A stretch of 64,000 nucleotides of DNA from Gammaproteobacteria bacterium (GCA_963662545.2 CAXXLL010000002.1:576001-640000); one strand, 5' to 3'; shown: positions 36,966 through 60,631, counted from the first letter of the stretch. Notes: a model not told the origin generated them from the letters alone. Translations and numbers: made by a program.

Positions 36966-36987
36966 CGTCGCGATCGATGATCGCTAT

Positions 36988-37061
36988 GGGTCGATAGCCG
37001 CCTCCTCGCGGCAGCGCAGCACCTTTCCAAATCACGTCTGCAATGCGCTCATAAGCGGTCG
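36988..37061 (+). repeat. 74-bp conserved repeat, copy a
   Basis: GGGTCGATAGCCGCCTCCTCGCGGCAGCGCAGCAC-N9-TCACGTCTGCAATGCGCTCATAAGCGGTCG. Confidence 0.9.
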
Positions 37062-37246
37062 ACAAGTTCCCTGAAGCGTCGAGTCGAGAGGGTACGGCTG
37101 CAGTCGGCCAGGGGACGAAACCGCTATCGCGGTAGTGGTTAGCGAGGTCGTGGCGGAGTTGTAGTCAGTTCAGTTAGCAAGATGGGCCCTCCCTGTGTTG
37201 AGGTTGTTATCGCCAAACAACGACCAACAACACAGGAGACAAGCCC

Positions 37247-38131
37247 ATGACCCAGTCTAACAAAACCATCAGCCCGTTGTACGTCAACGCATGATCGACG
37301 ACATGACGTTGCGTCAGCTGCAGGAGAAAACGCAGACCGGATATCTGCGTTCCGTCAAACGCTTGACGAAGTTTCTGGGTCGCTCGCCGGATACGCGCGT
37401 CAGCCGAAGACCTGCGCGCGTTTCAAAAACAGTTGGTTGAACACGGCGCGTCGAGCGCGACCATCAATGCCACGATCCGCGGTCTACGGTTCTTCTTCGA
37501 GACCACCTTGGAACGCCCAGCGGCACTCAAACGGATGAGTCCGGTGCGGGTGCCGGAGCGCTTGCCGGTAGTCTTGAGCGTTGCAGACGTCACCCGCTTA
37601 CTAGACGCCGCGCCCAATCTGAAGTCGAAAGCCGCGCTGTCGGTGGCCTACGGTGCCGGCTTATGCGCCAGCGAAGTCTGCCACCTCAAAATCACCGACA
37701 TCGACAGTGAACGGATGATTATCCGGGTCGAGCAGGGTAAAGGTTCGCGCGACCGTCAAGCGATGCTCTCGCCCGCTTTGTTAGGTTTACTGCGCGCTTG
37801 GTGGCGCGACGGTCATCGCCGCGGCAAGATGCTCCCCAAGGGTTGGCTGTTCCCCGGCAGGGATCCCGTTGACCCGCTCTCACCTCGTCAACTCAATCGC
37901 ATGTGTCACTTCGCCGCGGCCACCGCCGAGTTGGATAAACAGATCTCCATGCACACCCTACGCCACAGTTTCGCGACGCACTTGCTCGAACAGCAGATCG
38001 ATATCCGGGTCATCCAGGTATTACTTGGCCACAAGAAGCTGACCACCACGGCGCGCTATGCCCATGTCGCAACGAAGGTGTTGAGCGACGTACAAAGTCC
38101 CCTCGACCGACTGAGCTTACCGACGCCGTAA
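37247..38131 (+). pseudogene. tyrosine recombinase with 5' frameshifts and catalytic R-to-C change (GLCASE)
   Basis: Closely similar to the intact 51660-52541 gene; indels near 37280 and 37395; HTLRH and LGH..Y motifs present. Confidence 0.85.
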
Positions 38132-38132
38132 C

Positions 38133-39289
38133 GTGGCGCGGCCACCGCTCGAGGTGGCAGATATTTTTAGACGCGACGGCGCGACCTGGCGTCAAGCGCA
38201 TGCCGGTCATATCAGCCTCGGCCAACTCAAGGTCATGTCTGCCATCGAACACTGCCGCACCGAGGCGCTCGGCGGGCACCTGTTGCATTGCGAGCCGTGC
38301 GATGCAGAGCGTATTGCCTATAACTCGTGCAGGAACCGCCATTGTCCGAAATGTCAGGGACGTAAAGCAGCGCAATGGCTCGAACACCGTCAAGCAGAGC
38401 TGTTGCCGGTCGCGTATTACCATATCGTGTTCACCCTACCCGCACTGATCGCCGAGTTTGCCTATCAGAATAAAGCCGTGGTCTATGACCTGCTGCTTCA
38501 GAGGTGTCTGCTGCAACGCTCTCCACCATCGCCGCCGATCGCAAACACCTGGGCGCCCAGATCGCAATGACCTCGGTGTTGCATACCTGGGGCTCGGCAC
38601 TCACCCATCATCCGCATGTCCATTGCATCGTGCCCGGCGGCGGACTCGATGGCGAGACCTGGGTGCCGTGCAAACGGGGGTTCTTCCTGCCGGTACGGGT
38701 GTTGTCGCGACTGTTCCGGCGCTTGTTTCTGGAGCGGCTCCACCAGGCACACCGTGACGGGCAGCTACACTTCTGCGGTGACTTGGCGACTCTCGCCAAC
38801 CGCGCATCGTTCGACCAGTATCTGGCACCATTGGCGCAAACGGATTGGTTCGTCTACGTCAAACAACCCTTTGCCGGACCCCAAGCGGTGCTGGCTTATC
38901 TGTCGCGCTACACCCACCGCCTCGCCATCTCCAACCATCGGCTCATCGCCCATGATGCGCGTGGCGTCACCTTCCAATGGCAGGACTATCGCAGCAAACG
39001 CCGGGTGCGCTACCAACCCATGACGCTCGCCACCGATGAGTTCATCCGGCGCTTCCTGAACCACGTCTTACCCAGGGGCTTCCATCGCATCCGTCATTAC
39101 GGCTTGCTCGCCAATCCGGTGCGACGCGATAACCTGGCCCGCTTGCGCCGAGCACTCGATATGCACCACGAGCCCGACGTCGAAACACAACCAATTACGA
39201 CACCTTCGCCGACCTTCGTGTGTCGAACCTGTGGCGCGCCCTTACAGATCGTCGAGATCCTAAACCCGAGAACTCGGTCACCGCCATGA
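38133..39289 (+). pseudogene. IS91-family rolling-circle transposase, frameshifted near 38500
   Basis: Zn finger (CRNRHCPKC), HPHVH (HUH), YLSRY (Y2), RIRHYG split over two frames. Confidence 0.88.
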
Positions 39290-39689
39290 CATCGGCTTCT
39301 ACTGACAACAATGACAGGCAGCACGCAGCGGTGTTGGCGATCTCTTATTGCCTCAGCCGTGGCAGACACCCGAACCGCGCGATCAAAACCAACCGATCAC
39401 TCGCTAAAACCGCTCTCAAAAGCATCGATAGCGCCGACATCGGACTTCGAATCGCCGCGCACCACCACACCGTCGACCCACTGCCCTAAACAATCCCCAT
39501 AGCCACGCCCCGCGGTTTCCTCCCCTGGGCGTTATCGAACACCCGCCTCAACGCTGTCGCAGAACCGCGCCCTTGTGCCGTTGCGGGTGTCCAATAACCC
39601 TAACCATGAGCGGTCATAAACATGAAGCGACGAGTTTCTACTCTCACTCCCCACATTCTGGATCGCTGAAACTTCCGACACATGAACGC

Positions 39690-40238
39690 TCACCGGCAGC
39701 TGCTTGACCTGTACTTAACAGGAAGCGTACCACCGCGGCAATCCCACCTAACCCTAGCGTCCTCAATGGACGGTGTGAGCACGATAGTGTGGCTATCACA
39801 GATTTCAACCAAAGTGATGGTTATTACTCCTTGCTCACCTACGGAGACTGAATCAGTCCAGTAACTACTGATCTCTCCAGGGGCAGCCAACTCTGCTTGC
39901 TCGTTACTCGAAGGTAGTTTGCCATGACGCGCAAAATACTCGCTGACAGCGTTTTTACCAGCGCTTGCGAGCGATAGGCTCTCGGTAAACACTTCACGAA
40001 CGAACGGGAGTTGGCTTTGCAAGTACATCGATAGCACCAACGCTACGACGGGAAAGACAAATGCGAGCCCGATGGAAAGGCGATTATGGTTTTTGATTGC
40101 TTCGCGAACTTTCGGCGACACGAATGAAACGAGTACAGACAGAATGCCGAGTGCGAAAGCAATTAGGGCCGTCCACCCGAAGAAACTTGACAAGAAATCG
40201 ATGACTCGCAGATTTTCGGGAATGCAAATTTTGTACAT
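39690..40238 (-). CDS. pilin-domain membrane protein lacking the prepilin N-terminus
   Basis: Two TM segments then SLASAGKNAVSEYF..G.LPSSNEQA..GVITIT..WDC..KYRSSSCR type IVa pilin head; no GFTLIE. Confidence 0.75.
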   Translation of the reverse strand: MYKICIPENLRVIDFLSSFFGWTALIAFALGILSVLVSFVSPKVREAIKNHNRLSIGLAFVFPVVALVLSMYLQSQLPFVREVFTESLSLASAGKNAVSEYFARHGKLPSSNEQAELAAPGEISSYWTDSVSVGEQGVITITLVEICDSHTIVLTPSIEDARVRWDCRGGTLPVKYRSSSCR

Positions 40239-40388
40239 GCCGGATGGTTCTCAATGCGCGTGGAATAAGGAATCATATCCTGATTCTGAATTGGTGCCGA
40301 AGAGCTGATGCAAAAGATGCTACAACCGTGTGGTCGCCCGTGTGTCGCAGTCGAACCTATGGATTCCTGCAACCGCGAAGTCCTAATT

Positions 40389-40462
40389 GGGTCGTCAGCA
40401 GCCTCATCGCGACAGCGCAACACTGCTCTGGATTACGTCTGCAATGCGCTCGTAAGCGGTCG
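40389..40462 (+). repeat. 74-bp conserved repeat, copy b
   Basis: GGGTCGTCAGCAGCCTCATCGCGACAGCGCAACAC-N9-TTACGTCTGCAATGCGCTCGTAAGCGGTCG. Confidence 0.9.
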
Positions 40463-40939
40463 TCGCGCCAGCTTAATATTCGCTACGAGCGCTGAGTTCC
40501 GCTCGTGGCCGAGGCTGCGTCCGGACGTCACGTACAAGCAAAAAGAGATCCGACGACGCGGATTCCTTGTTACCAACGATATAAATTTGTTTACCCGGCT
40601 TCGCCTCACCGTGGTTCGAGGCATTGTGGTAGCGAAGAGCAAAGTCCTTCTCCACGTTCGGTCCAAAACCGCTCACGTGTTTTATTCGCCCGGCAGGCGA
40701 TCGATACGCGAGAATGTTGAGATCACGGCGGATGTCGAAGAGTTAAGCCGTTCTTTTGAACAATGTCCGCGCAGAGAAAAGCTTTTTGGCGATGCCGGGC
40801 GGTCGTCGGTCCGGAAGGTGCGGCGGCGCGGTTACAACCACAAGGCGGCCCAGCGGATGAAGCATGCTTTCTCCCGGGGACGTTCGGTGATGCGAGGCGT
40901 TCAGGAGCCGGCGCCGCTGCCAATGGATTGCATCCCCCT

Positions 40940-42916
40940 TCACTCATCGCGCCCTGTCCCTGCCTTGAAGCCCCGTAACCAGGCACTCGCCTCGCTCGCC
41001 AGGGTCCAACGATCGTCCGGGCCGAGGCCGTCGGGCCCAAAACGGTAACGCTGGTGCAGTTCGGCGAGGCGGCGAAGCGCTGCTGCATCGACCTCGGCGC
41101 CGAAACGGGCGGCGGCGCGTTCAATCCATGCGTGCATCGGTTCGTCGCCGCGCCGCCGGGCGCCGGCGGTCTGAAGCCGCTGCTCGATCTGGTAGAACTC
41201 CGAATCCGCACCCGGCCAGACGGTTCGCGCCGCCACGGCGGACCGCCGGCGGCCAGTGCGCCGGTGCCACAAGAACCACGCGGTGAGCGCGCACGCCATC
41301 GACGCAGCGCCGTAAGACACCCGCCGCGTCGCGATCCCGAACTGCGGCATCTCCCAGGTCCGCCAGCCATACAGCAACCACGAGAAGAGATCGCCGAGCG
41401 GCTCTAACAGCGAGGCGGTCTCATCCTCGACCGTGACCCAGATCGGCGGCGTGGTGTCGACGTCGATCCAGACGCCGTCGATGTAGGCGCGCGCCCAGGC
41501 ATGTGCATGGCGCTTGCGCACGACATAGCCTTCATCAACCAGGCGCCGCTCCTGCACTGAGAAGCCGGTCGCGTAGCGAGCCGGTATACCGGCCGCGCGC
41601 AGCAGGAGGGTCGTCGCGGTTGCAAAGTACTCACAGTGCCCGGCGCGCGAGACCTCGAGGAAGTGGCGCAGCGCCCCGCCCTCCGCTTCGATCGGTCCCT
41701 GGTAGAGCGAGTATGCGAAGCCCTCGAAGAAGTAACCGCGGATGGCTTCGAGGGCGGCACTCGGAGACATGGCATCGAGACCGAGATCCCGGACCACCAG
41801 CGAGAAGAGCGCACGATCGCCTTTGGTGAGATCGCGATCTTGCACAGTCGGTGCCGCCGTGAACGATCGGCCCGGTGATGCGATGGCGGTATAGGTGACT
41901 GTCCCCGCAGCGTCGTGCGCCTCGACCGCGCCGAGCGGATTACGCTTCAGCTGCCCGACCAGTAAACCTTCCACACGGTGGGTCCCGCTCGGCAGCGACA
42001 GCACGCCGACACGGCCCTTGAGATACTCGGAAATCGACACCGCCGATCCGCCGGCTGCGCCGTTCGCGATCTGCCAGGTAGCTTCATCCTCGCCGTGCGG
42101 CACGGATTCGAGTGCCGCGTCGCGCGCATTCCAGTTGCCGTACCGGTACTCGTTGTAGCTCGCCCGGTGCAGCAGTCGCGGCCGAATCTCGGGTCCGAGG
42201 TATTTGACGCGGAGTAGGATCTTGTCCGAAAGCTTGAGTTTGCCGATGTGGCCGATTTCGGTGCGGGTGCGGTAGGGATCGGTGCGCGATCCGGATATAT
42301 TGACGAGGTTCGCCCCCAGCGAAACGATGGTTGCCTGCAGCGCGCTGAGCCCGAGGTGGCCGGCATAGCCCAGGGCGACCGCGACCACAATGAGCGCCGC
42401 CCATGCGAGACCCGCGTACTGCCGCGGCCGCCTCGTCCACAACGCCCCGGTGACGAGCAACGCAAGGCCCGGGTAGAACCACACCGAGTACTCGTAGACG
42501 GCACTGCCCGCGAGCAGGCACACGGCGAAATACGGAAACTCGAGCCTGAAGCTGCGCCCGGATGTGGCGCTGGGTAAACGCCTCAGCAAAGGCAGTGCAT
42601 AGAGCGGCACACTGCCGCGCCGCGACAGGCCCTGAGCGACGAGGAGCGGCGCCAGCACTACGGGCAGCCACTGCACCAGTCGGATGATAGCGTCGCGCAT
42701 CGCGAGCGCGGTCAGCAGATACACCGCGAGGCCGAGTACGGCGAGCACACACGCCATGCCGATGCGGCGGAAGTGCTCATCAGATACATCGACGTTCGGG
42801 CTGGTCAGGCGCGGCCCGATCACGGCGAGGACGAGCACCGCGGCGAGCGGTAGCAACGTCGTCTGATAGCCCCAGAACAGGATCGCGCCCCCGAGCAGGA
42901 TCGAGGCCGCCGTCAC
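40940..42916 (-). CDS. membrane transglutaminase-like protein (TgpA-like)
   Basis: Multi-TM N-terminus; GHCEYFAT, GIPARYATGF, HAHAWA, DTTP (Cys-His-Asp). Confidence 0.9.
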   Translation of the reverse strand: MTAASILLGGAILFWGYQTTLLPLAAVLVLAVIGPRLTSPNVDVSDEHFRRIGMACVLAVLGLAVYLLTALAMRDAIIRLVQWLPVVLAPLLVAQGLSRRGSVPLYALPLLRRLPSATSGRSFRLEFPYFAVCLLAGSAVYEYSVWFYPGLALLVTGALWTRRPRQYAGLAWAALIVVAVALGYAGHLGLSALQATIVSLGANLVNISGSRTDPYRTRTEIGHIGKLKLSDKILLRVKYLGPEIRPRLLHRASYNEYRYGNWNARDAALESVPHGEDEATWQIANGAAGGSAVSISEYLKGRVGVLSLPSGTHRVEGLLVGQLKRNPLGAVEAHDAAGTVTYTAIASPGRSFTAAPTVQDRDLTKGDRALFSLVVRDLGLDAMSPSAALEAIRGYFFEGFAYSLYQGPIEAEGGALRHFLEVSRAGHCEYFATATTLLLRAAGIPARYATGFSVQERRLVDEGYVVRKRHAHAWARAYIDGVWIDVDTTPPIWVTVEDETASLLEPLGDLFSWLLYGWRTWEMPQFGIATRRVSYGAASMACALTAWFLWHRRTGRRRSAVAARTVWPGADSEFYQIEQRLQTAGARRRGDEPMHAWIERAAARFGAEVDAAALRRLAELHQRYRFGPDGLGPDDRWTLASEASAWLRGFKAGTGRDE

Positions 42917-44223: not shown

Positions 44224-44240
44224 GGGATGGTCCCGTCGCG

Positions 44241-45200: not shown

Positions 45201-45246
45201 GGTCCGGGTTCCCTGTCAGATTGGGGACAGTATATGGGGAATAAAC

Positions 45247-45440
45247 GGTGTCGGAGTTGACTTATTTGACTAACATATAGCCGTATTGGCGCCGCCTATC
45301 CTAGTATCCTAGGGGGCAAACCACGTTTTACACGGTGCCGCGCGTTTTCACGGTCCCGACAGCGGCCCGGCGCTCTTAGTCAATTAAGTCAATTCCGGCA
45401 CGCAATTCTCGTTCAAGTCAATTAAGTCAACTCCGGCACC
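45247..45440. repeat. 25-bp inverted/direct repeat cluster (REP- or MITE-like)
   Basis: GGTGTCGGAGTTGACTTATTTGACT (45247) is inverted at 45378-45401 and 45416-45440 (AGTCAATTAAGTCAAyTCCGGCAC). Confidence 0.75.
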
Positions 45441-45745
45441 CGATTCCTATCACCGAAGACGAGACGTAGCCCAAAATCGCCCAACGATTACCAAGAAAAT
45501 CCAACCATGGATATGTCAAGCGCAGACGAATGGAAGCGCCTACAGGCCGATATAGAAATAGCCCGGCAAGTCATTATTGCCCTGCGCTGGCTGATGGAAG
45601 ATACGGCGCCACAGTCATCGATGGATGCGAGTGGGGAGGTGTTGGATAGGCTGGGTGAGTATTCGCCAACTCGTGCTGGTGCGTAATACGAACCATCGCA
45701 AAGGCGGCGAGCTGCTAAAGGCGAATGGGTTTGGTGTACCCGGAT

Positions 45746-46060
45746 CTATTTATCGCCAGAAAAATCCAACCGATCTCGCAGTTTTTCAAGTTCCGGCTTC
45801 ATAAGCTCGCATCTCCGAGCGTATGGAGTCCTTCCTTTCCTTGGTTTTGCAAGATCGGAAATGGATTGAAGTGCGGTGAACATAATCAGAGCGGTTTCCC
45901 ACAACTTGTGCTCGATAGAATCGAGATTCGGCAATATGTTGATGGACATTGGAAATCCATCATCGCCATATGACACGCTGTCTTCTAAATGTTGCAAATT
46001 TGCGTGTACAGCATTGCTGTAGACGTTGTAATACAAATAGAGTCTGGGCACCTCGCCCAC
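45746..46060 (-). pseudogene. hypothetical protein fragment (DUF5677/HEPN-like C-terminus?)
   Basis: YxxxSxxVH motif (YNVYSNAVHAN) in an AT-richer block; no good start. Confidence 0.3.
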
Positions 46061-46387
46061 TCTGGCGTCTTGCTATCGAAAAACAAAAGCGACACATGCG
46101 TCGGATTGGAAAAGCGCCGTTACGGCGTTTTCAGTATGTGGGGACGTGGAAAGATTTACCACGTCAACCGACACGAAAGGCTACCCCGTAATGGCCCCAA
46201 ATCACCCCTATTCACCCCACCCCACCGAGACATCCACCCCGACCCAGGAGTAACCCCCACCCTGTCCTGATTAGGCCGATACGCACCCCGAAATAGGGGC
46301 TTTCTGGAGATTAATTACCGGCTACGCAATTCGGCGAGTGTAAAGAATCCTAGAAAATCGGGCAGCGGAGCGATTTATTGCCATAGA

Positions 46388-47206: not shown

Positions 47207-47256
47207 CGAATTGGGTATCAGGTCTTGCCTTTTGTCCGTGATGTCTGTTCAGGGTC

Positions 47257-47416
47257 CAGACTGTGTGAAAACTCAATAATACGACGCCGAAAGTAAAAAA
47301 TTCCCCACCAGCATAGTAGTTAAGCACCATGAAAAGGGATCAGCACATCGCATTAATCCACTTCCGAGTGTCGGTTCCCCACTTTTGAAAAACGCAAATA
47401 GTTTTCACACAGTCTG
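47257..47416. mobile_element. 160-bp MITE (IS1182-like ends), copy 1, GGTC target duplication
   Basis: IR CAGACTGTGTGAAAACT / AGTTTTCACACAGTCTG; GGTC at 47253-47256 and 47417-47420. Confidence 0.88.
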
Positions 47417-47489
47417 GGTCGTTAGCCGCCGCCTCGCGGCAGTGCAGCACTGGTAATAGTTACGTCTGCAATCCCCTCGTAAGCGGTCG
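47416..47489 (+). repeat. 74-bp conserved repeat, copy c
   Basis: GGGTCGTTAGCCGCCGCCTCGCGGCAGTGCAGCAC-N9-TTACGTCTGCAATCCCCTCGTAAGCGGTCG. Confidence 0.9.
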
Positions 47490-48261
47490 TCCTGTTGTTT
47501 TAAGTGTCGCGCTCCAAGCCCATTTCGGCTTTCGGCCAGAGGACTAAACCGCTCGCGCGGTAGGGGGAGGTTTCACCAGGCGTTAGCGATGGATTGACGG
47601 GAAGGGTCTGTCCCGTGTTGATGTTGGTTTGCGACATGCAACTCAACACAAGGAACAGACCCATGACCCAGAACAAGCATTCTATCAGCCCGTTGCGTCA
47701 ACGCATGCACGACGACATGCGCCTTCGTAAGCTCTCTGAGAAAACACAGACAGCCTATATCCGTGCGGTCAAGAATTTCACCCGCTTTCTCGCCCGTTCT
47801 CCCGACACCGCCGGTAGCGAAGACCTGCGGCGTTATCAACTTCACATGGTCTCCACCGGCGTGTCTCGCACGACCATCAACGCCACCATCACCGGTTTGC
47901 ACTTTTTCTTTGAGATCTCCCTCGAGCGGCCCGATGCGATGAAACGGATGAGTACCGTGCACGTGGAACGTAAGCTCCCGGTGGTCTTGAGCGGTGAGGA
48001 AGTTGCGCGCCTGTTACAAGCCGCGCCCGGCATCAAGTACCAGGCGGCGTTGTCGCTCGCCTATGGCGCCGGCCTTCGCGCCGGCGAGGGAGTCATGCTG
48101 AAAGTCACCGATATTGACCGTGAGCGCAAGCTCCTGCGCGTCGAGCAGGGTAAGGGACGCAAGGACCGCTACGCTATGCTCTCACCGACCTTGCTCAAGG
48201 TGTTGCGCACCTGGTACCGCAGCGCTGCATCGCAGGGCAAGATGTGGCCCCACGGCTGGCT

Positions 48262-49650
48262 AGGAGTTATAACTGAATCTGGTGTTTGAGCGAATTGAAT
48301 AAAGGCGGCGTATCTGGTTGAAATGTTGTTACCAAGCAGCAAGCCAACCAAAGAGGATACGCCACCATGAGAGAGAGTAACGTTGTTGAATTATCAGGTC
48401 GAGAAGGAATACCAGATCCGTTGACGGAGGTTTTGAGAAACGGTGCACGGGCGCTGATTGAGCGAGCAGTTGAAAGCGAGCTGGCAGAGTATTTGGCGCA
48501 GTATTCAAGCCATCGCACGGCGGACGACAAAGCAGGTGTGGTTCGCAACGGCTATTTGCCGGAACGCCAGTTGCAGACGGGCTTGGGGACGGTCACGGTC
48601 AGGATACCGAAGGTTCGTTCGAAGCTCGGCGAGCCGGTGACCTTCCGTTCAGCGCTGGTGCCGCCGTATGTGCGCAAGACAAGAACCTTGGAGGCGGCCG
48701 TGCCGTGGCTGTATTTGAAGGGCGTTTCCAGTGGCGAAATGGGCGCTGCGCTGGAAGTTTTGTTGGGGCCGCAGGCGAAGGGCCTGTCGGCGAGCACAGT
48801 GTCGCGCTTGAAGCAGGTGTGGGCGCAAGAATACCGCGACTGGTGCGAGGGGCGATTGGACCAAGACCGCTGGGTGTAGGTGTGGGCGGACGGTGTCTAC
48901 AGTGGCCTGCGGGCGGAGCACACGAAGCTGTGTGCGTTGGTGGTGATCGGCGTCAATGAGCGAGGCGAGAAGCGTTTTTTGGCGATGGAGGATGGTGTGC
49001 GGGAGTCCACGCAGAGCTGGCGCGAGGTGTTGCTGAAATTGAAGTCACGCGGGATGAATATTCCCAAGCTGGCGATCGGGGACGGTGCCATGGGCTTCTG
49101 GGCCGCACTGGAGGAAGTCTACGGTGAGACCCGCCAGCAACGCTGCTGGATGCACAAGACGATGAACGTGCTGAACTGCCTACCGAAGTCAGCACAGGCC
49201 AAAGCCAAGCAAGCCCTGCACGCGATCTGGCAGGCCGCGACAAAGGCCGACGCCGAGAAGGCGTTCGAGCTGTTCCTCAAGACCTATGAACCGAAGTATC
49301 CCAAGGCGACCCTGTGCCTACAGAAAGACCGTGAGGAGTTGCTGGCGTTCTATGATTTTCCGGCACCACATTGGCAAAGCATTCGCACGAGCAATCCGAT
49401 TGAATCCACCTTCGCTACGATCCGGCACCGGACCCGGCGCTCCAAGGGCGGTCTCTCTCGGGACGGCATGCTCCATATGATGTTCAAGCTGGGGCGGTGT
49501 GCGCAGAAGAATTGGCGACGCCTACGTGGATTCGACTACCTGGCCAAGGTGATTACTGGAGTTAAATTTGAAGATGGTATCGAGGTGACAAGGGTCAATC
49601 AGGTCGCCGCTTGATTCAACCGCCTGAACACCACTTTTGACAATAACTCC
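48262..49650 (+). mobile_element. IS256-family insertion sequence
   Basis: IRs GGAGTTAT..TGGTGTT / AACACCA..ATAACTCC; target duplication GGCTGGCT (48254-48261 and 49651-49658). Confidence 0.92.
48367..49614 (+). pseudogene. IS256 transposase with in-frame TAG at 48877
   Basis: RNGYLPER, YLKGVSSG, WV*VWADG, IGDGAMG, QRCWMHK, RTSNPIES in one frame. Confidence 0.9.
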
Positions 49651-49963
49651 GGCTGGCTGTTCCCGGGGCAGAACCCCGTCAACCCTCTGACCACCCGCCA
49701 GCTCAACCGGGCCTGTCATGCGGCGGTGGACCTAGCGACCATCGATAAGCGCGTGTCGCTGCATACGCTGCGCCATTCATTCGCAACTCATTTACTCGAG
49801 CAGGGGGTCGACATCCGTGTGATCCAGGTGCTGCTCGGACACCAGAAGCTCGAGACCACCGCGCTGTACTCCCAGGTCGCCATGCGCACGCTTCGTGAGG
49901 TCGTGAGCCCACTGGAACATCTCACCCTGGAGTTGAGACCGCCCGCCTGACCCGGCGGGTGAG

Positions 49964-51157
49964 GTGTCTCGGCAACCGCTCGAGGTCGCGGATATCTTCC
50001 GCGCCTACGGTCCGGCTTGGCGTCATGCGCACGCCGGACACCTCAGTCTCGGGCAGCTGAAGGTCATGTCGGCCATCGAGCGCTGTCGTAGCGCAGCGCT
50101 CGGCGGCCACGTTGTGCACTGCGACGCCTGTGACCACATCGAGATCGCCTACAACTCCTGCCGTAACAGGCACTGCCCGAAGTGCCAGGGCGCAGTGGCC
50201 AGGCAATGGCTTGCCGCGCGCGAAGCCGAGCTGCTACCGGTCGCGTACTTCCACGTCGTGTTCACGGTGCCGGCAGAGATCGGCAACCTCGCCTATCAGA
50301 ACAAGGCCGTTATCTACAACCTCTTATTCAAAGCCGCCGCCGAGACCTTGCTCACCATCGGGGCCGATCCCAAACACCTCGGGGCACGCCTGGGGCTCAC
50401 CGCCGTGCTGCATACCTGGGGCTCGGCCATGACCCATCATCCCCATCTGCACTGCATCGTGCCTGGCGGCGGGCTCTCGCTCGACGGCGTGCGTTGGCTC
50501 GCCTGTCGGCCCAACTTCTTCTTACCGGTGCGGGTGCTCTCGCGGTTGTTCCGACGCCTGTTCCTCGGCCAGCTGGGTGAACTCCACGCGGGCGGACAGT
50601 TGGCCTTCTTCGGCCAATACCAGGGACTCGAAGACCCGCACGCCTTCGCCGAGTTCCTCACTGCGTTGCGTAAACGCGAGTGGGTCGTTGATGCCCGCCC
50701 GCCCTTCGCCGGACCCGCCGCGGTGCTCGAATACCTCGCCCGATATACCCACCGCGTCGCCATCGCTAACTCGCGTCTCATCACCTTCGACCAACAACGC
50801 GTGAGCTTCAAGTGGAAGGACTATCGCGCCCAGCAGGAGAACCGCTACAAGACCCTGTCGCTCGAGACCGGCGAGTTCATCCGCCGCTTCCTCATCCACG
50901 TCCTACCCCACGGCTTCCATCGCATTCGCCATTACGGGTTGTTCGCAAACGGCGGGCGCACCGAGAACCTCGCAAAGGTCCGCGCTCTGCTCGGCATCGA
51001 GACATCCCAAGATGTCAACGACAACGACAACACTGATGAGGCGACACCCGACTGGCTACGCTGTCCGTCCTGTGGAGGTGCGATGCACATCATCGACACC
51101 TTCGAGCCCGGTCACGCGCCCTGTGCACCACCGCACCGCGGAGGCGACCCACCTTGA
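49964..51157 (+). CDS. IS91-family rolling-circle (Y2/HUH) transposase, intact
   Basis: YNSCRNRHCPKC, HVVFT, HPHLH, YLARY, RIRHYG, C-terminal CPSC. Confidence 0.93.
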   Translation: MSRQPLEVADIFRAYGPAWRHAHAGHLSLGQLKVMSAIERCRSAALGGHVVHCDACDHIEIAYNSCRNRHCPKCQGAVARQWLAAREAELLPVAYFHVVFTVPAEIGNLAYQNKAVIYNLLFKAAAETLLTIGADPKHLGARLGLTAVLHTWGSAMTHHPHLHCIVPGGGLSLDGVRWLACRPNFFLPVRVLSRLFRRLFLGQLGELHAGGQLAFFGQYQGLEDPHAFAEFLTALRKREWVVDARPPFAGPAAVLEYLARYTHRVAIANSRLITFDQQRVSFKWKDYRAQQENRYKTLSLETGEFIRRFLIHVLPHGFHRIRHYGLFANGGRTENLAKVRALLGIETSQDVNDNDNTDEATPDWLRCPSCGGAMHIIDTFEPGHAPCAPPHRGGDPP

Positions 51158-51659
51158 CCCTCGACCGTTCGAACTCGCCAGCCCACCAGCCCACAAATCG
51201 CCGCTTTACCACCGGCAACGTTACCGTCTTGCTTGGCGCCGTGACGAGACCACATAGCGGTACCGATCCCGCTCCTCAACGTCCGGTCACCCACCCACCT
51301 CATTGCACGCTGACCCGTTCTTGCCCGACACACCGCTTGCCGTTGGCTACCGATCATATCAATCCGAACAACGCCACCCTCAAATCCCCATAGCACCGTG
51401 CCGACCAACGCGCCGGCGTTCTTCTCCCGCGGTTTCCTCCCTTGAGGCTTGTCAGACGCCTGCCCCCACCCTCTCGACCCAGTCCGTCCACTGTCTACGG
51501 CAGGCATCTGACAACCCTTAACAGAGGACGAAACCGCTATCGCGGTAATGGTCGGCGAGGTTGTGGCGGAGGTGTTGTAAATTGAGTTAGCAAAATGGGC
51601 TCACCCTGTGTTGAGGTTGTTATCGCCAAACAGCAACCAGAAACACAGGAGATAAGCCC

Positions 51660-52541
51660 ATGACCCAGTCTAACAATTCCATCAGCCCGTTGCGTCAACG
51701 CATGATTGATGACATGACCTTGCGTCAGCTCCAGGAGAAAACGCAGAGCGGCTATCTGCGCTCGGTGAAGCGCTTGACGAAGTTTCTGGGTCGTTCACCC
51801 GATTCGGCGTCAGCCGAAGACCTGCGCGCGTTTCAAAAACATCTGGTGGACCAGGGGGTATCGAGCGCGACCATCAATGCGACGATCCGCGGACTGCGGT
51901 TCTTCTTCGAGACCACCCTGGAGCGCCCGCAGGTACTGAAACGGATGAGTCCGGTGCGTGTGCCGGAGCGCTTGCCGGTGGTCTTGAGCGTGGCAGACAT
52001 CACCCGCTTATTGAACGCTGCCCCCGATCTGAAGTCGATGGCGGCGCTGTCGGTGGCCGATGGTGCCGGGTTACGCGCCAGCGAAGTCTGCCACTTGAAG
52101 ATCACCGACATCGACAGCGAACGGATGCTTATCCGAGTGCAACTCGGCAAAGGTGCTCGAGATCGACAAGCGATGCTCTCGCCGGCCTTGTTGCAACTAC
52201 TGCGCGCCTGGTGGCGCGAGGGTCATCGCCGCGGCAAGATGCTCCCCAATGGCTGGCTGTTCCCCGGCGTTGACCCGGTCGACCCCCTCTCGACACGCCA
52301 ACTCAATCGAATGTGTCATTTCGCTGCGGCGACGGCCGCGCTGGAGAAACGGCTCTCCATGCACACCTTACGCCACAGCTTCGCGACACATTTGCTCGAG
52401 CAGCGGGTCGATATCCGGGTCATCCAAGTCTTACTCGGCCATAAGAAGCTGACCACCACCGCACGCTACGCCCATGTCGCGACCCAGACCTTGAGTCAAG
52501 TACAAAGTCCTCTGGACCGGTTGAAGTTACCCAAGCCGTAG
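51660..52541 (+). CDS. site-specific tyrosine recombinase (N-terminal SAM-like domain plus catalytic domain), intact
   Basis: GLRASE, GKG, HTLRH, LGH, ARY: complete R-K-H-R-H-Y set; AGGAG RBS. Confidence 0.93.
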   Translation: MTQSNNSISPLRQRMIDDMTLRQLQEKTQSGYLRSVKRLTKFLGRSPDSASAEDLRAFQKHLVDQGVSSATINATIRGLRFFFETTLERPQVLKRMSPVRVPERLPVVLSVADITRLLNAAPDLKSMAALSVADGAGLRASEVCHLKITDIDSERMLIRVQLGKGARDRQAMLSPALLQLLRAWWREGHRRGKMLPNGWLFPGVDPVDPLSTRQLNRMCHFAAATAALEKRLSMHTLRHSFATHLLEQRVDIRVIQVLLGHKKLTTTARYAHVATQTLSQVQSPLDRLKLPKP

Positions 52542-52542
52542 C

Positions 52543-53521
52543 GTGGCGCGGCCACCGCTAGAGGTGGCAGACATTTTCAGACGCGACGGCCAGACCTGGC
52601 GTCAGGCGCACGCCGGACATATCAGCCTGGCTCAACTCAAGGTCGCGTATTACCACGTCGTGTTCACCTTACCGGCACTGATCGCCGATCTCGCTTACCA
52701 GAATAAGGCCGTGGTCTATGATTTGCTGTTCAAGGTCTCTGCGGAAACACTCGCCACCATCGCCGCCGATCGCAAACACCTGGGTGCCCAGATCGGAATG
52801 ACCTCGGTGTTGCATACCTGGGGCTCGGCACTCACCCATCATCCGCAGGTCCACTGCATCGTCCCCGGGGGCGGACTCGATGGCGAGACCTGGGTGCCGT
52901 GTAAACGCGGGTTTTTCCTGCCGGTACGGGTGTTGTCGCGACTGTTCCGGCGTCTGTTCCTACAACGGCTCCACCAGGCACACCGTGACGGGCAGCTACG
53001 TTTCTTCGGTGACCTGGTGCATCTCGCCAACCCGACATCGTTCAACCGATACCTGGCGCCACTGGCGTAAACGGAGTGGTTCGTCTACGTCAAACAACCC
53101 TTTGCCGGGCCCCCAAGCGGTGCTCGCTTACCTGTCGCGCTACACCCACCGGGTTGCCATCTCCAATCATCGGCTCATCGCCCATGATGAACGCGGCGTC
53201 ACCTTCCAATGGAAGGACTATCGCACCAAACATTGTGTCCGATACAAACCCATGACGCTCGTCACCGATGAGTTCATCCGCCGCTTCTTGACCCACGTCT
53301 TACCCAAGGGGTTCCATCGCATCCGTCATTACGGCTTGTTCGCTAATCCCGTGCGACGCGATAACTTGACCCGCTTACGTCGAGCACTCGACACCCACGA
53401 CGAGCCCGACGTCGAAACAGAAACGATGACGGCGTCTTCACCGGCGTTCGTCTGTCGAATCTGTGGGGCGCCCTTGCAGATTGTCGAGATCCTCACCCCG
53501 AACATGAGAGCACCACCATGA
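52543..53521 (+). pseudogene. IS91 transposase with Zn-finger deletion, TAA at 53068 and a frameshift
   Basis: Against copy 1: 177-bp deletion at 52644, CAA-to-TAA change, extra base near 53110. Confidence 0.88.
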
Positions 53522-54131
53522 CGCCGGCTCCTACGACAAGCATGACCGGCAGCACGCAACAGCGTCGGCGAGCGCCTATTGCCTCAACTGTGTCAAACAC
53601 TCGAGCCGCCCCTTCAAAAGCCAACGACTACGCTAGAAAACGGCGCTCCCACCCATCGATGACGCCAGCATCCGACTCGAAAACGCCGCACACAACGACT
53701 TCTACGACCCGCTGCCCCCAACAATCCCCATAGCCACGCCCCCGCGGTTTCCTCCCCTGGGCGTTATCGAACACCCGCCTCACTGCCGTCACAGACCCTC
53801 ACCCTCGTGCCGTTGCGGGTGTCCAATAACCCTAACCAGGAGCGGTCTTGGTATTTGTCGTAAGGCCATGCAGCGTGAAGGCTTCGTGTTCCGGGCGGGG
53901 TCCCATGGCGATGCAGTCGTTGACGGAGCTGTCGAGGACCTGTGCGAGGCCATCGTCGTCGTGCGGTTCGAGGGCGAGATAGGTAGTATCCAGAGCGCGA
54001 ACCAACAGACCTGCACGTTCGAGGTGCTACCCCACCCGTTCGCTCAGGGTAAGCACGCGAAAAAGAACTCCACGAACTCGCGCACGCAATTCTCTGAGCG
54101 AAAAAGTGGTTTGCCTCTGGAATCAGACGTT

Positions 54132-54914
54132 CTAATAAGTCATCAGCACCTTTCCATAAGGTAAGTCGAAGCTCGAAGAACCGCCCGAGTAAAACGCATC
54201 CACCATTCTCACGACCGGCAGCTTATGCCAGGGATCGATCGCCGATTGCGCGTCGAACGTCAGCGAGCCGGTGCCCCGGATCTGATTCTTCCACCAATCA
54301 TCACCGACTTCGAAGTTGTTCGTCGCGGGATTAAAGTGGTCGATGAGTTCGATCAACGGATCGCCCCCCGCCGGATCAGGAATGATGCGGACGCAGACGA
54401 GCGGCCGCGCGAACGGTTCGGCCTCTTCCCGGGACATGACCCGCTCCGGCCTGACCATGGCGGTGCAGATCCGAATCCCTGCCGGTCGTTCGACGATGCC
54501 GACCATGCCTTCGGGATGTTTCTCGATGGCGACATGAGCCAGCTTTTTCGGCACGCCCCAGATCTCGCGGCCGACAGTCACTGCCGCATCGGACGTCAAC
54601 AAATTCCAGACCACGTATTCGACGGGAGTACCTTCGAACGAAGCACGCAGGCCAACGAAAGCCTCATGGTAGGCGCCCAAAGTGCAGGTGGGAATGTTGA
54701 GGAACACAACCGACACCGTGGCCGGCAGCTCCAGTTCCAGACAATCGGGCAGGATGTCGAACGCGGCTTCCTGATCGGTCTCATACATAAAGACCAAGCG
54801 TTCGACATTGCGGTAGTAATACGGTGGCTCCGGATAGATCGGCGAATCCAACGGCATTGTGTTCGCCATACGGGCTTTGGTCATCCGACCCTTCGTGCGT
54901 GTTGCTGTGTCCAT
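54132..54914 (-). CDS. acetoacetate decarboxylase-like superfamily protein
   Basis: PPYYY, YETD, YHE, GREIWGVPKKLA (Schiff-base Lys motif), DPWHKLPV. Confidence 0.88.
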   Translation of the reverse strand: MDTATRTKGRMTKARMANTMPLDSPIYPEPPYYYRNVERLVFMYETDQEAAFDILPDCLELELPATVSVVFLNIPTCTLGAYHEAFVGLRASFEGTPVEYVVWNLLTSDAAVTVGREIWGVPKKLAHVAIEKHPEGMVGIVERPAGIRICTAMVRPERVMSREEAEPFARPLVCVRIIPDPAGGDPLIELIDHFNPATNNFEVGDDWWKNQIRGTGSLTFDAQSAIDPWHKLPVVRMVDAFYSGGSSSFDLPYGKVLMTY

Positions 54915-55417
54915 GGTTACCCCTTTTGGTTTAGTTTTTGGTTCCCACACCGGAGTGCAGCGTTGGGTACTCTTGAAGCGTAGATGAGCTAAGCGCTGGG
55001 ATCTACAGTGTAGTGCCTCGGGCCTATTGTTCCGCCGATGCGACGAACGATAATGCAAATCCGTATATGAATCTCAGGACGACAACTGGAACGCGCATTT
55101 AAGGCACATGCAGGGTCCCTACCCCGCAGGTTCTGGCAGCAAGAAGCGTTTGGATCAGAACGCGAGTATAGAAGACGAATAACCCGCCTTATTGCGAGGT
55201 AGCATCCGTTCGCGGTAGGTGAGAATGACCGTCTGTGAAGCGTCCCGCGGTGTCGTTTCGCCGGCAATAAGCGCTGATCACGACGGGCGTTGCGGGTCTT
55301 ATCCTAGCTGAGGCCGAGCGTAGTCGCGGTCTTCGCTGGCGAGGCCTGGCATCCGTGCTTGGACCGGTATTGCAGTTCCGTCTCTCTGCATTACGAATCA
55401 GTGACGACGACCGCTTG

Positions 55418-55491
55418 GGGTCGGCAGCTGCCGAATCGCCGCAGTGCAACACCTGTAAGCATTACGTCTGCAGTCCCCTCGTAAGCGGTCG
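55418..55491 (+). repeat. 74-bp conserved repeat, copy d
   Basis: GGGTCGGCAGCTGCCGAATCGCCGCAGTGCAACAC-N9-TTACGTCTGCAGTCCCCTCGTAAGCGGTCG. Confidence 0.9.
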
Positions 55492-55802
55492 TGCAGTAGC
55501 GTTCAGTGGTGCGACTGTGGAGGGCGGCGGCTTACAGCTAGAAGCGGACGGCAAATTACGGGACCGGCATGGACCATGACGAGGAGATCTGAAGATAAAT
55601 CAGCGAATTTCCGTCGCCACAATCGGTGGCTGTTCCGTAATTCCTTCTGCGCGGGGCGGGCGCACGGAGCTGCGGTCGAAAACCGAATTGGATACACTGA
55701 TATCGCAAAGGCATGCCCGATTTGTGACTATGGACAAGATATCGAACCACTTACAACCCGCCGGACGCGACCCGCCCGGATCGGGTCCCGAGGAAACAAG
55801 CT

Positions 55803-56687
55803 ATGGATCTCTCTGCTAATAACTGCCTCGTTGACACCGACTGGCTCGCCCGTCACCTCGATTCGCCAGATTTACGCATTATCGAATGCACCTCGTTGCT
55901 GCCGAATTATTTCGAAGAATCGGCTGCCGACGGGCTGATCAAGGAAAGCGGCCTGACCCTGTGGCAGGAAGGGCATGTTCCGGGCAGCGCATTCGCCGAT
56001 ATCCTCGGCGAACTCTCCGACGAAACCAGCGATCGCTTGATGTATGGCATACCCTCCACCACACAATTCAGCGAAGCGATGTCGAACTTAGGCGTTGACG
56101 CGAGCACCGGGGTCGTACTCTACGACCGCCAGCTCAACATGTGGGCGGCACGGGTGTGGTGGCTGCTACGCGCCTTCGGATTTGAAAACGCTGTCGTGCT
56201 CAACGGTGGCTGGACAAAATGGGTGGCCGAAGACCGCCCAGTCTCAACCGCGCCGCCGTCTTATCCGCGATCCGAGTTTGTCGCCAGGCCGCAGCCGCAG
56301 CTGATCGCGAAACGCGACGAGGTGCACGCTGCCATTGACCGGGACGCGTCGTGTCTCGTCAACGCCCTGCAGGCCGATGAATTCGAGGGCAAGCCGCCGC
56401 ACCGCTACGCCCGTCCGGGCCGTATCGCCGGGAGCGTCAACGTACCGTTCTCCACAACCTGCGATCCGGAAACTCAACTATACGGAACAGACGACGAACT
56501 CCGCGCGACCTTCGACAGTGCCGGCGCAATGAGCAGCGCCGAGACCATCTGCTACTGCGGCGGCGGTATCGCGGCCTGCAGCACCGCCCTATTGCTGACG
56601 CGTCTCGGCGTTGAAGGCGTCTCGGTCTATGACGGCTCCATGACCGAATGGGCCAGTGATCCATCGTTGCCCATGGAAACCGGTTAG
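55803..56687 (+). CDS. tandem-rhodanese sulfurtransferase (SseA/MST-like)
   Basis: LVDTDWL, GHVPGS, AARVWW, LNGG, YCGGGIAA active-site loop, YDGSMTEW. Confidence 0.92.
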   Translation: MDLSANNCLVDTDWLARHLDSPDLRIIECTSLLPNYFEESAADGLIKESGLTLWQEGHVPGSAFADILGELSDETSDRLMYGIPSTTQFSEAMSNLGVDASTGVVLYDRQLNMWAARVWWLLRAFGFENAVVLNGGWTKWVAEDRPVSTAPPSYPRSEFVARPQPQLIAKRDEVHAAIDRDASCLVNALQADEFEGKPPHRYARPGRIAGSVNVPFSTTCDPETQLYGTDDELRATFDSAGAMSSAETICYCGGGIAACSTALLLTRLGVEGVSVYDGSMTEWASDPSLPMETG

Positions 56688-56915
56688 ACGCGCGCCTGCT
56701 ACTGCAACTCGAAACTCTCGTAGTTGTTAGCGCAGGGGCGAAGGTGCGGGTGCCAGCTCTACATAATGGACATGCCAGGGTTGGCCGACGATGATGAAGA
56801 TCCGGGCGAGGGGCATTAAGAATTGCTGTTTTCATCCAGTATTTTCTGAAATACCTTCCTAATTTCGCTCGCGAGTTCGTTCTTGTCGGCACACCAAACA
56901 AGTCTGCTACGGGTC

Positions 56916-57075
56916 CAGACTGTGTGAAAACTCAAAAATACGACGACGAAATAAAAATATTCCCCACCAGCATAGTTGTTATGCCCCTCGAATAGGGATC
57001 GGCATTTCAATTAGATCCAATTTCGAGGGTAGTTCCCCCACTTTTGAAAAATGAAAATAGTTTTCACACAGTCTG
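56916..57075. mobile_element. 160-bp MITE, copy 2, GGTC target duplication
   Basis: Same 17-bp IRs and length as 47257-47416, diverged interior; GGTC at 56912-56915 and 57076-57079. Confidence 0.88.
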
Positions 57076-57148
57076 GGTCGTGAGCGGTCTGATCGCGGCA
57101 GCGCAGGACTGTTCTGGGTCATGTCCGGAATACCCTCAGAAGCGGTCA
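57075..57148 (+). repeat. 74-bp conserved repeat, copy e (most diverged)
   Basis: GGGTCGTGAGCGGTCTGATCGCGGCAGCGCAGGAC-N9-TCATGTCCGGAATACCCTCAGAAGCGGTCA. Confidence 0.85.
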
Positions 57149-57289
57149 GTACTTCCTGTACATAACAAGATGAAACAGGCTGACCAGGACAAATACAACA
57201 ACGGCTATGATGGTAAAAGGTTTCATCCTTCCCCTGTTATCTCATAACGTGGTCAATACTAAATTACTCCGGCCTTTTTTTATTTTGAG

Positions 57290-57823
57290 TTAGGCTGGCT
57301 GTGCGCCCCCCCCTAGAAAGGTAAACAAGAGCACGAGCATAATAGTCTGAACGACCCAGCCGATTACGCACACCCCCACCGCACGCCATGTGCTTTCATA
57401 ATCAAGCGCTTGTCTCACCGCAATCACCATAGCCATCAACATCCAAATTGAAGCCACAAGAAAAACGATCTCTGTCAGCCCCGGGATGATTCCTAATACT
57501 CGAATTAACCCTGGGGAACTTGAAAAACCAATCGTGCGCAATAACTCACCATGATCTGCTTTGGTTTGTGGTTCTGGAAGTAGCCTTGTGCCAATAAAGT
57601 AAGTTAGGTAGGCCCAGATATACCATCCGACAATTGCTACGATCATCCCGATCAACATCCCTCCAAGGCCACCTTGCCCAAAACGTCCAATTCCGGCTGC
57701 GACGCTTGAAAGAGCGACAACTAACATGGCCTGACCCAGTGCCCCTTGATCGGCCTCAACCTCTTCATAAAGGTCGACATCAAGTTTCGCAGCACGAATC
57801 ATACGGTCCTTTAGACGAGTCAT
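57290..57823 (-). CDS. YIP1-family membrane protein
   Basis: RAAKLDVDLYEEVEAD, LLRTIGFSSSPG, AVRQALDY; about five TM segments; GGAGGGAG RBS. Confidence 0.8.
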   Translation of the reverse strand: MTRLKDRMIRAAKLDVDLYEEVEADQGALGQAMLVVALSSVAAGIGRFGQGGLGGMLIGMIVAIVGWYIWAYLTYFIGTRLLPEPQTKADHGELLRTIGFSSSPGLIRVLGIIPGLTEIVFLVASIWMLMAMVIAVRQALDYESTWRAVGVCVIGWVVQTIMLVLLFTFLGGGAQPA

Positions 57824-57991
57824 TTTCTCCCTCCTACAATTCTATTGGCTCTCGATCATTATGGTATTGATGTAATTGTAAGGTGTTTAAATCCGCAACC
57901 AAGTAAAATCACAATTGAAACTTTGATGGCCGAAATTGGAAACAACACGCTCACAAGGTAGTGCATTTGAGTAAAGAGGCAAAATAACTGG

Positions 57992-58065
57992 GGGTCGTCA
58001 GCGGCCTGATCGCGGCAGCGCAGCACTAGTCTAGATTACGTCTGCAATACCCTCGTAAGCGGTCG
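57992..58065 (+). repeat. 74-bp conserved repeat, copy f
   Basis: GGGTCGTCAGCGGCCTGATCGCGGCAGCGCAGCAC-N9-TTACGTCTGCAATACCCTCGTAAGCGGTCG. Confidence 0.9.
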
Positions 58066-60613: not shown

Positions 60614-60631
60614 ACGGTACAATACGTACCC

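Follow-up and report, generated by a model that had tools for sequence, protein, structure and literature searches.

Co-oriented arrays of a 140-bp three-palindrome unit among accessory genes of a gammaproteobacterium, and the IS91-family elements that target them

Introduction

What are the six similar sequences, all pointing the same way, that recur between accessory genes in a 64,000-nucleotide stretch of the genome of a Gammaproteobacteria bacterium (GCA_963662545.2, CAXXLL010000002.1:576001-640000)? This whole stretch is called the window, and positions without a contig name are counted from its first letter. An original prediction, made from the window alone, described the six as 74-bp repeats belonging to a site of three palindromic parts and proposed a gene-cassette recombination system, possibly served by a tyrosine recombinase and a Y2 transposase encoded nearby. 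We examined the repeat in the whole 5.58-Mb genome (three contigs, called G000, in which the window is C2:576001-640000) and in related genomes, and asked in turn how it is built, where it occurs, what it is not, which mobile elements use it and how the genes between its copies move. The two neighbouring genes are parts of IS91-family insertion sequences (ISs) that target the site, and the arrays themselves may represent a second cassette system beside the integron of the same genome, a reading which we put forward tentatively.

Architecture of the repeat unit

All six copies were found on the + strand in a repeat search of the 64-kb window, at 36988, 40389, 47416, 55418, 57075 and 57992 (copies a to f), as had been predicted. 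Those at 36988, 40389, 47416, 55418 and 57992 share a gap-free register, and the copy at 57075 came out within a longer repeat pair (D7). When up to 3 mismatches were allowed, a 30-nt core pattern matched the window 5 times and none of 100 dinucleotide shuffles (0 in each). The 74-nt repeat turned out to be the conserved core of a larger unit: in an alignment of 67 full-length copies (64 distinct) conservation spans about 140 bp, from about 12 nt before GGGTCG through CGGCCAA, and the true left edge accordingly lies some 12 nt upstream of the start first given.

The unit holds three related imperfect palindromes of 22-34 bp, all in direct order. In a gap-free alignment their cores lie at +1, +58 and +118, and the subsites stand about 58-60 bp apart. 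Site 1 reads ..gAtG.CCGCTnT-GGGTCG-TCAGCGGCC around the core at +1 (also written CCGCTnT-GGGTCG-TCAGCGG), site 2 reads CTGCAAT-GCGCTCG-TAAGCGGTC around +58 (also written CTGCAAT-GCGCTCG-TAAGCGG) and site 3 reads CGGCTnT-CGGCCA-AnAGCGGnC around +118. Sites 1 and 3 agree in direct orientation at 15 of 22 consensus positions, counted on the site logos, and between the palindromes lie an extra conserved block, TCGCGGCAGTGCAGCAC, and a variable segment from +76 to +112. The alignment and logos uphold the predicted design of three palindromes at fixed spacing, including, for copies a to d, a third core (CGGCCA) whose end lies 49 nt beyond that of the 74-nt repeat; the same stretch is degenerate in copy e and altered in copy f. 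Nearly random positions adjoin invariant bases, and they are the same positions in all three species that carry the unit. The only links revealed by mutual information are in short neighbouring blocks and in the segment from +81 to +117, and over the first 74 nt the variable positions lose their linkage within a few bases.

Arrays of the unit across the genome

The proposed genome scan was run with an nhmmer profile built from the six window copies with 15 nt upstream and 60 nt downstream. It returned 124 matches, 115 of them with E<1e-5, and 110 of these 115 copies fall into 11 arrays of at least three units each, which span 311,026 bp or 5.6% of the genome. Adjacent units point the same way in 97 of 99 pairs, and the array that starts in the window runs on for 38 units in a row over 136 kb. 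The spacing between units has a median of 2,380 bp (quartiles 1,055 and 3,865, range 131 to 21,804), and the GC content of the arrays is 56.2% vs 58.1% for the genome. The cargo of the window array consists of ordinary accessory genes in both directions, such as those for a pilin, a MoxR/DUF58/transglutaminase operon, acetoacetate decarboxylase, a rhodanese and Yip1. The view that the repeats punctuate accessory genes is supported by the co-oriented arrays. None of the findings named in advance as refuting the prediction was made, the copies being clustered, alike in direction within arrays and outside core regions rather than scattered in both orientations beside core genes.

The direction of the units follows neither genes nor replication. 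For 85 full-length units we took the strands, relative to the unit, of the open reading frames (ORFs) nearest to it on the upstream and the downstream side; they were (-,-) in 24, (+,-) in 21, (-,+) in 20 and (+,+) in 20 cases. By crude ORF calls over all arrays 244 ORFs lie along the unit direction and 226 opposite to it. These figures speak against a role linked to transcripts. Within one GC-skew arm, that is, within one replichore, the arrays alternate in direction, and the replication strand was on this ground ruled out as what sets the orientation of the units. As neither transcription nor replication accounts for the co-orientation, some local process must preserve the direction of the site.

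At least three arrays begin beside tRNA genes (C2 near 75 kb, C3 887-931 kb and contig C67 of the sister-species genome G002), two of them with P4-type integrases, which places these arrays in genomic islands. The order at these starts is tRNA-Met, integrase and units on C3, a tRNA cluster, integrase and units on C2, and tRNA-SeC followed by units in G002, and in each case the units point toward the tRNA. Besides, when the 115 units were scanned and two rows of the resulting list were dropped, 15 of them (14 distinct) were found to be followed on the same strand, about 190 nt from the unit start, by a small membrane-protein gene of one paralogous family. The proteins of this family are about 165-185 aa long, start with MNW(D/E)A(I/V)G and have an N-terminal hydrophobic helix (for example C2:1109467 on the - strand, C3:15319 on the + strand and C3:891562 on the - strand); they gave no Pfam match, the only similarity being a sub-threshold one to DUF6082.

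RNA, coding and known repeat families

In the window no Rfam family reached its gathering score, a single unrelated 21-nt pseudoknot model matched at E<5, and there were no tRNA or tmRNA genes. The unit has no consensus fold over 64 sequences (RNAalifold -1.1 and -1.5 kcal/mol), and single-sequence DNA folds of 40 of these 64, each set against 15 mononucleotide shuffles, were ordinary (mean z -0.72 and -0.43, with 6/40 and 4/40 below -2). Complementary covariation was absent from the unit, and a long-range pairing of GGTCG/AGCnG with CGGCT/CGGCC, which we considered, had no covariation support. A structured RNA or Rfam family was ruled out on the missing gathering-level match and consensus fold. 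A coding region or leader peptide was ruled out too, as stops occur in all three minus-strand frames, which were translated (plus-strand frames were read by eye), and the variable positions show no 3-nt periodicity. Invariant bases beside nearly random positions, with neither covariation nor excess folding, form the pattern expected of a duplex site contacted by protein.

Known repeat families were excluded in the same manner. The unit consensus and the site logos contain neither the R'' (RYYYAAC) nor the R' (GTTRRRY) box of attC sites, and the attC hairpin was ruled out, since the unit has a consensus fold of -1.1 and -1.5 kcal/mol vs -40 kcal/mol for a copy of the genome's own attC. The one canonical dif-like site of the genome, at C2:2180004, is unrelated to the units, and an Xer/dif origin was rejected for want of similarity to it. 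A link with RAYTs, the transposases associated with repetitive extragenic palindromes (REPs), was likewise ruled out: the genome has 7 Y1_Tnp matches, and the 6 of these loci that were examined are free of units, the best unit-like match in them scoring 6.5 bits (E 0.097). The earlier statements that the repeats are neither attC sites nor CRISPR repeats were supported, and the repeats do not form an Rfam family either.

The resident integron

The same genome carries a conventional integron system. Two full-length intI genes score 462 and 461 bits against a 265-bit cut-off, and the one on C2 is adjoined by a co-oriented array of self-complementary attC sites of about 110 nt with CCTAAC...GTTAGG boxes. 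An attC profile gave 107 matches over both strands, corresponding to about 55 sites, in arrays separate from those of the unit. Several of these attC clusters lack an integrase, the largest having about 30 sites (C3:1,917.9-1,949.5 kb). Classical integron regions were noted at C2:982347-997664, C3:1524815-1528180 and C3:1917897-1949543. Only 4 weak or partial attC copies lie within 1 kb of a unit, and both intI genes are more than 60 kb from any unit. Since canonical attC sites and intI occupy separate arrays of the same genome, the unit is a parallel family rather than a decayed attC.

Mobile elements that target the palindromes

The integrase and Y2 genes of the window are parts of IS91-family elements, which fall into two types with about 70% identity between them. 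In these elements, by Pfam, a Phage_integrase ORF is followed on the same strand by a transposase with Y2_Tnp and Zn_Tnp_IS91 domains. The genome holds six full copies and one partial copy, all in or at arrays and all co-oriented with the units. With the slash marking the junction, left junctions read CGGC/CA(R)RGGACKAAACCGCT and right junctions ..AACCCTWAAC/CAnnAGCGGnC, so the elements split site 3 between CGGC and CA. The right end is followed by CATG, CAGG, CAAA, CATT or CAGA, and only the dinucleotide CA is common to both junctions. For IS91 the rule is insertion with no target duplication and a specific tetranucleotide at the ori end. Two of the elements have entered full units (window units a and c), three lie in shorter mini-units, and one stands head-to-tail behind another element at 51521/51522. 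The mini-unit family has 8 genomic copies with site 3, and its unoccupied copy at 30755-30838 (+ strand), which consists of a site-1-like palindrome with inverted core, a spacer of about 40 nt and an intact site 3 (GGCGGCTGT-CGGCCA-ACTCCGGAC), served as the empty-site reference.

The window shows these insertions in detail, all features being on the + strand. Unit a (36976-37108), which begins 11 nt past the stop codon of an amidohydrolase gene (36111-36965), retains sites 1 and 2, the variable segment and the left half of site 3; the type I element copy 1 (37109-39604) occupies its site 3 and has moved the right half (CATGAGCGGTC) off to 39605-39615. The integrase frame of this copy has 3 in-frame TGA stops and its Y2 transposase is in fragments. 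Unit b (40377-40523) is complete. Unit c (47416-47536) begins with the site-1 core, reaches as far as the left half of site 3 and is followed by the type II element in site 3 (47537-51521), by the type I copy 3 in tandem directly behind it (51522-53836) and by the right half of site 3, CAGGAGCGGTC, at 53837-53847. In the type II element the integrase gene (from 47663) is cut by an IS256-like element and the Y2 transposase (49964-51157) is intact; the type I copy 3 has an intact integrase (51660-52541) and a broken Y2 transposase. The intact integrase and the intact transposase thus belong to different element copies. The IS256-like (Transposase_mut) element in the type II integrase gene lies at about 48290-49620 and is itself made of two ORFs. 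Further along, unit d (55406-55552) is complete, unit e (57075-57210) has a recognisable 74-nt core and a degenerate 3' part, and unit f (57980-58135) has sites 1 and 2 intact and an altered site-3 region.

The integrase matches the integron-integrase model TIGR02249 at positions 3-178 and 238-315 only, without the IntI-specific segment. A preprint describes IS91-borne recombinases as the closest relatives of IntI, lacking its extra helices (bioRxiv 10.1101/542381). Homologues of the integrase at 48-65% identity were present in 20 of 401 sampled genomes of the class, a tally that includes one unpublished genome (G164), and in several of these the left end of the element abuts a half-palindrome, ...GGGT/CR.. 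or ...CGGC/CA... Within G000 itself no IS91-type copy was found in the canonical attC arrays. Both sister species of the genus bear arrays and yielded no IS91-type integrase, the best matches being Xer-like at 33% (G001) and 35% (G002) identity, which marks the IS91 elements as guests rather than as the machinery of the arrays. A homology between the 5' part of the unit and the left end of the element was considered and was not significant, as 90, 24 and 187 of 300 shuffles reached the observed score. The role proposed for the adjacent tyrosine recombinase and Y2 transposase, as enzymes acting on the sites, was therefore not sustained: they belong to visitors of site 3, and the array-bearing sisters do without such an integrase.

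Apart from these, an IS of about 1.69 kb named IS 'B', with inverted ends AGAGTGTGTGAAAACTC and a 478-aa DUF772/DDE transposase, has 14 of its 15 copies in the site-1 core with duplication of GGGTC (12 direct, 2 inverted) and the 15th in a solitary GGGTC palindrome; the GGGTC pentamer occurs 10,357 times in the genome. Families of miniature inverted-repeat transposable elements (MITEs) with IS 'B' ends are present at site 1 (about 20 copies of MITE 'A', two in the window) and at site 3. Both MITE 'A' (about 165 nt) and a second one, MITE 'E' (about 160 nt), sit precisely in palindrome cores of units. The two window copies of MITE 'A' lie on the + strand at 47252-47415 (inverted ends CTGTGTGAAAAC), exactly at the GGGTC core of unit c, and at 56907-57074, with its end exactly at the GGGTC core of unit e. 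Such MITE and IS 'B' ends at site 1 account for the 'AGTTTTCACACAGTCT' flank before many units, and the upstream flank 'TTTTCACACAGTCT' was rejected as part of the unit, being the end of an IS 'B' or MITE 'A' inserted with GGGTC duplication. The palindrome cores are in this way precise targets of three kinds of mobile element. A further IS of 1.71 kb has more than 60 copies at about 99.7% identity (for example C3:352778-354489, with two copies just upstream of the window at C2:570387-575502), and together with many broken genes it points to a recent burst of IS activity.

Distribution of the unit and reshuffling of cassettes

In a BLAST search of 41 genomes including G000, the unit was found only in the two other species of the genus, with 13 matches in G001 and 6 in G002, in co-oriented arrays; one other match, in G012, extends over the adjoining IS91 end alone. 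A sequence-only covariance model built from 33 units, 8 of them from sister species, matched strongly only in the genus (at least 35 in G000, 27 in G001 and 7 in G002), and 7 of 78 other genomes of the family had single or double weak matches of 17-22 bits. Exact-pattern scans hit 4 genome records and 2 short metagenome contigs. Two of the genome records correspond to the sister species; the other two, short contigs from bins of other phyla, are probably misbinned.

The cassettes lying between units recur in other arrays and in the sister species at 91-96% identity, with different neighbours. Segment 8511-10171 of G001 matches C2:1,627,117-1,628,774 of G000 at 96% identity, G001 16769-18744 matches C2:682,945-684,920, G001 36085-37676 matches C2:734,544-736,136 and G002 22847-24383 matches C3:13,499-11,965; no adjacent pair of cassettes was found to be common to G000 and a sister species. 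Several units within G000 have only the upstream or only the downstream cassette in common. Cassettes therefore move as modules bounded by units. The switch from upstream-linked to downstream-linked identity falls at unit positions 6-7 (three units with one upstream cassette), 19, 35, 39 and 113 in G000, and near positions 31, 72, 74 and 118 in comparisons across species, other apparent breakpoints being boundaries of ISs. The visible recent exchanges look like homologous crossovers anywhere in the 140-bp homology, not breaks at one nucleotide, and the mapped junctions, scattered along the unit, do not point to a single recombination point at the GGGTC or GGCCA core.

At least half of a 4.5-kb stretch is contained in 13 public sequencing runs. 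Assembled contigs of four runs, each from a different study, span the cassettes; three of the studies show zero differences and the fourth shows 2-3 over 53,809-56,939. When circular or excision junctions were looked for in assembled contigs of four of 22 runs, the contigs broke at the repeats and the apparent joints were other genomic copies. Runs X1, X2, X3 and X7, compared over window positions 53800-59200, are labelled with four different host organisms, and smaller shares turned up in metagenomes of seawater, sediment and sponge. The bacterium seems to be a marine associate that is widespread and nearly clonal.

A cassette system or a mosaic repeat

Conservation without an RNA or hairpin signal, three subsites, co-orientation, confinement to islands, reshuffling of cassettes and the targeting of cores fit a protein-bound duplex site of recombination type. 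We therefore tentatively read the units as such sites, delimiting mobile gene cassettes in a second cassette-array system beside the integron, and give this reading somewhat less than even chances, since the searches turned up no cognate enzyme and the mapped junctions no fixed crossover point; the protein binding, the site-specific strand exchange and the cognate enzyme are the parts of it that we infer. A circular or incoming DNA segment with one unit would be joined into a resident unit, the joining would keep the units in one direction whatever the direction of the cargo genes, and homologous exchange and gene conversion, acting over the 140 bp of homology, would then redistribute the units among arrays. 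In a more specific form, which we consider possible and rather doubtful, this would be a hitherto undescribed, genus-specific cassette capture parallel to the integron, in which cassettes of 1-9 kb, their genes pointing either way, are joined at a 140-bp duplex site of three tandem palindromic subsites of recombinase type by an enzyme other than IntI, Xer or a serine resolvase. The IS91-type elements (with their IntI-like recombinase) and IS 'B' with its MITEs would have specialised on these sites much as other ISs have on attC.

Several results weigh against a site-specific recombination system. No recombinase was found in common to the three array-bearing genomes apart from Xer-like ones. 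At genome completeness of 89% (G001) and 95% (G002), neither sister has an IntI above the cut-off or a serine recombinase (PF00239), and the only tyrosine recombinases of G002 are two Xer-like ones. The repeat was found only in one genus, which leaves no independent lineage for co-occurrence with an enzyme, and each of 2 exact patterns had 0 matches among viral contigs, which thus gave no mobile carrier. The exchange junctions lie scattered in the unit, as expected of homologous exchange and not of a fixed crossover; partial units end at varied positions, and a precise common truncation point was sought among them and not found. Three candidate enzymes in G000 were set aside. The single PF00239 match is a short broken resolvase gene with an internal stop, between two array units (C2:2,551,529-2,551,855). 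A tyrosine recombinase of about 180-207 aa occurs near two arrays, and the examined copy (C3 352,207-352,857) is a fragment cut by the 1.71-kb IS. The P4-type integrases beside tRNA genes at two arrays are not common to all arrays.

The scattered junctions and the decay of linkage within a few bases in the first 74 nt, as well as the lack of a cognate recombinase, speak for another account, in which the unit is a lineage-specific mosaic repeat resembling the bacterial interspersed mosaic elements (BIMEs) that binds a host protein and takes no part in site-specific recombination. Arrays would then grow and shuffle by homologous recombination between units, for instance after uptake of DNA from relatives, and the palindromes would merely attract ISs, as is well known for REP and BIME elements. 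On balance we judge this unlikely, although it is the main rival. The palindromes are direct and not alternating, 110 of 115 copies are packed into 5.6% of the genome with 97 of 99 neighbours co-oriented, the unit direction is unrelated to the flanking genes, and 6 examined Y1/RAYT-like loci of 7 are unit-free. Homologous exchange alone, moreover, leaves unexplained how unrelated cargo was first placed between units and how direction was kept over 136 kb.

Accretion by the IS91-type elements themselves is improbable. Under this scheme one-ended rolling-circle transposition, which is established for IS91/ISCR elements, would have carried flanking DNA, ended at site-3-like sequences and left a unit per junction, and the elements would later have disappeared from the sister species and, in this genome, from the majority of positions. 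The 6 full copies and the partial one do all lie in or at arrays, co-oriented and at a fixed point of site 3, two of them stand in a head-to-tail tandem at 51521/51522, and homologues in other Gammaproteobacteria abut GGGT/CR or CGGC/CA palindrome halves. Yet the arrays of G001 and G002 exist with nothing closer than Xer-like proteins of 33-35% identity, the integrase family is spread over 20 of 401 genomes of the class as against one genus for the unit, the unit has no significant similarity to the element ends (90, 24 and 187 of 300 shuffles) and only 7 element copies face 115 units. Two further explanations carry little weight. That the unit is a cis-regulatory or RNA element (a promoter or operator, terminator, leader or small RNA) attached to cassette genes draws on the 15 units (14 distinct) followed at about 190 nt from the unit start by the same-strand membrane-protein gene, and is very unlikely given the indifference of unit direction to ORFs, the absence of conserved structure, covariation or an Rfam family, and the stops in the frames. 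Divergent attC sites of the resident integron, forming a cluster of attC sites lacking an integron-integrase (CALIN), would account for co-oriented arrays with accessory genes in a genome that has two intI genes, and are the least credible of all, as the unit lacks the RYYYAAC/GTTRRRY boxes and the hairpin that the real attC sites of this genome have in their separate arrays, intI lies far from any unit and the flanking ORFs are not co-oriented with the units.

Other repeats and mobile elements of the window

Window segments 9771-11077 and 19023-20625 contain direct and inverted repeat pairs about 9.3-9.6 kb apart with 76-82% identity, plus a perfect 43-nt inverted pair, which suggests a composite transposon or a larger element of which two copies have diverged. 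An IS3-type (rve) ORF and, behind it, a three-gene IS66-family element come directly past the last unit of the window (59168-62511). Two 31-nt direct repeats, 90% identical and 38 nt apart, lie at 45378-45446 upstream of the MoxR-type operon and may be an operator or a duplication in the promoter region.

Comparison with known systems

Like integron arrays and CALINs, the unit arrays consist of dozens of co-oriented, species-specific repeats of about 100-140 bp that punctuate accessory genes, and they likewise mostly have no adjacent integrase, have their cassettes reshuffled between arrays and attract specialised ISs. Unlike an attC site, the unit is made of three direct palindromes instead of one long imperfect palindrome, and it has neither R''/R' boxes nor a single-strand hairpin. 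Its cargo is also larger than that of the attC arrays of the same genome (median spacing of 2.4 kb vs about 0.6-0.7 kb), the cargo genes point either way, the units do not lie beside intI, and the canonical attC arrays coexist separately.

With REP and BIME elements the unit shares a mosaic of short GC-rich imperfect palindromes and conserved linkers, a copy number of about 100 and cores that are preferred IS targets. It differs from them in that its palindromes are direct, its copies are confined to islands, its direction is unrelated to genes and it has no RAYT association. The resemblance to res sites of the Tn3 type and to att sites with accessory sites lies in the length of about 120-140 bp and in the three dyad-symmetric subsites at fixed spacing; unlike res, which occurs once per element, the unit has 115 copies with no adjacent cognate recombinase found, and the sole resolvase match of the genome is broken.

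Tandem accretion islands, such as staphylococcal cassette chromosome (SCC) composites, tRNA-island arrays and Xer-dependent arrays, grow by serial insertion at a regenerated site and leave co-oriented direct repeats, often with the recombinase missing. Their att repeats are 15-60 bp long and few in number, in contrast to a unit of 140 bp with internal triple symmetry, which occurs up to 38 times in a row and derives from neither tRNA nor dif. The elements of the window, in turn, agree with those IS91-family members that have an upstream tyrosine recombinase, the gene pair being on one strand and several copies having common ends and one orientation. In this genome, they lie in units that are not attC and none of them lies in a canonical attC array.

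A full-text search of a literature library gave no description of such arrays or of IS91-type elements targeting them. To our knowledge, integrons are the only well-understood bacterial system in which gene cassettes are stored and shuffled one by one at a recombination site that is repeated. Should some enzyme act on the units, they would amount to a new platform for cassettes, from which site-specific DNA tools might be drawn. Should there be none, the arrays would demonstrate that a transferable 140 bp of homology is enough to arrange 5-6% of a genome in modules open to exchange. In both cases the neighbouring integrase and Y2 genes are to be read anew, as site-targeting IS91-family ISs, a little-studied two-gene group, and the occurrence of a second family of array-forming sites, with a double-stranded three-palindrome design, beside a normal integron offers a natural side-by-side comparison of the two.

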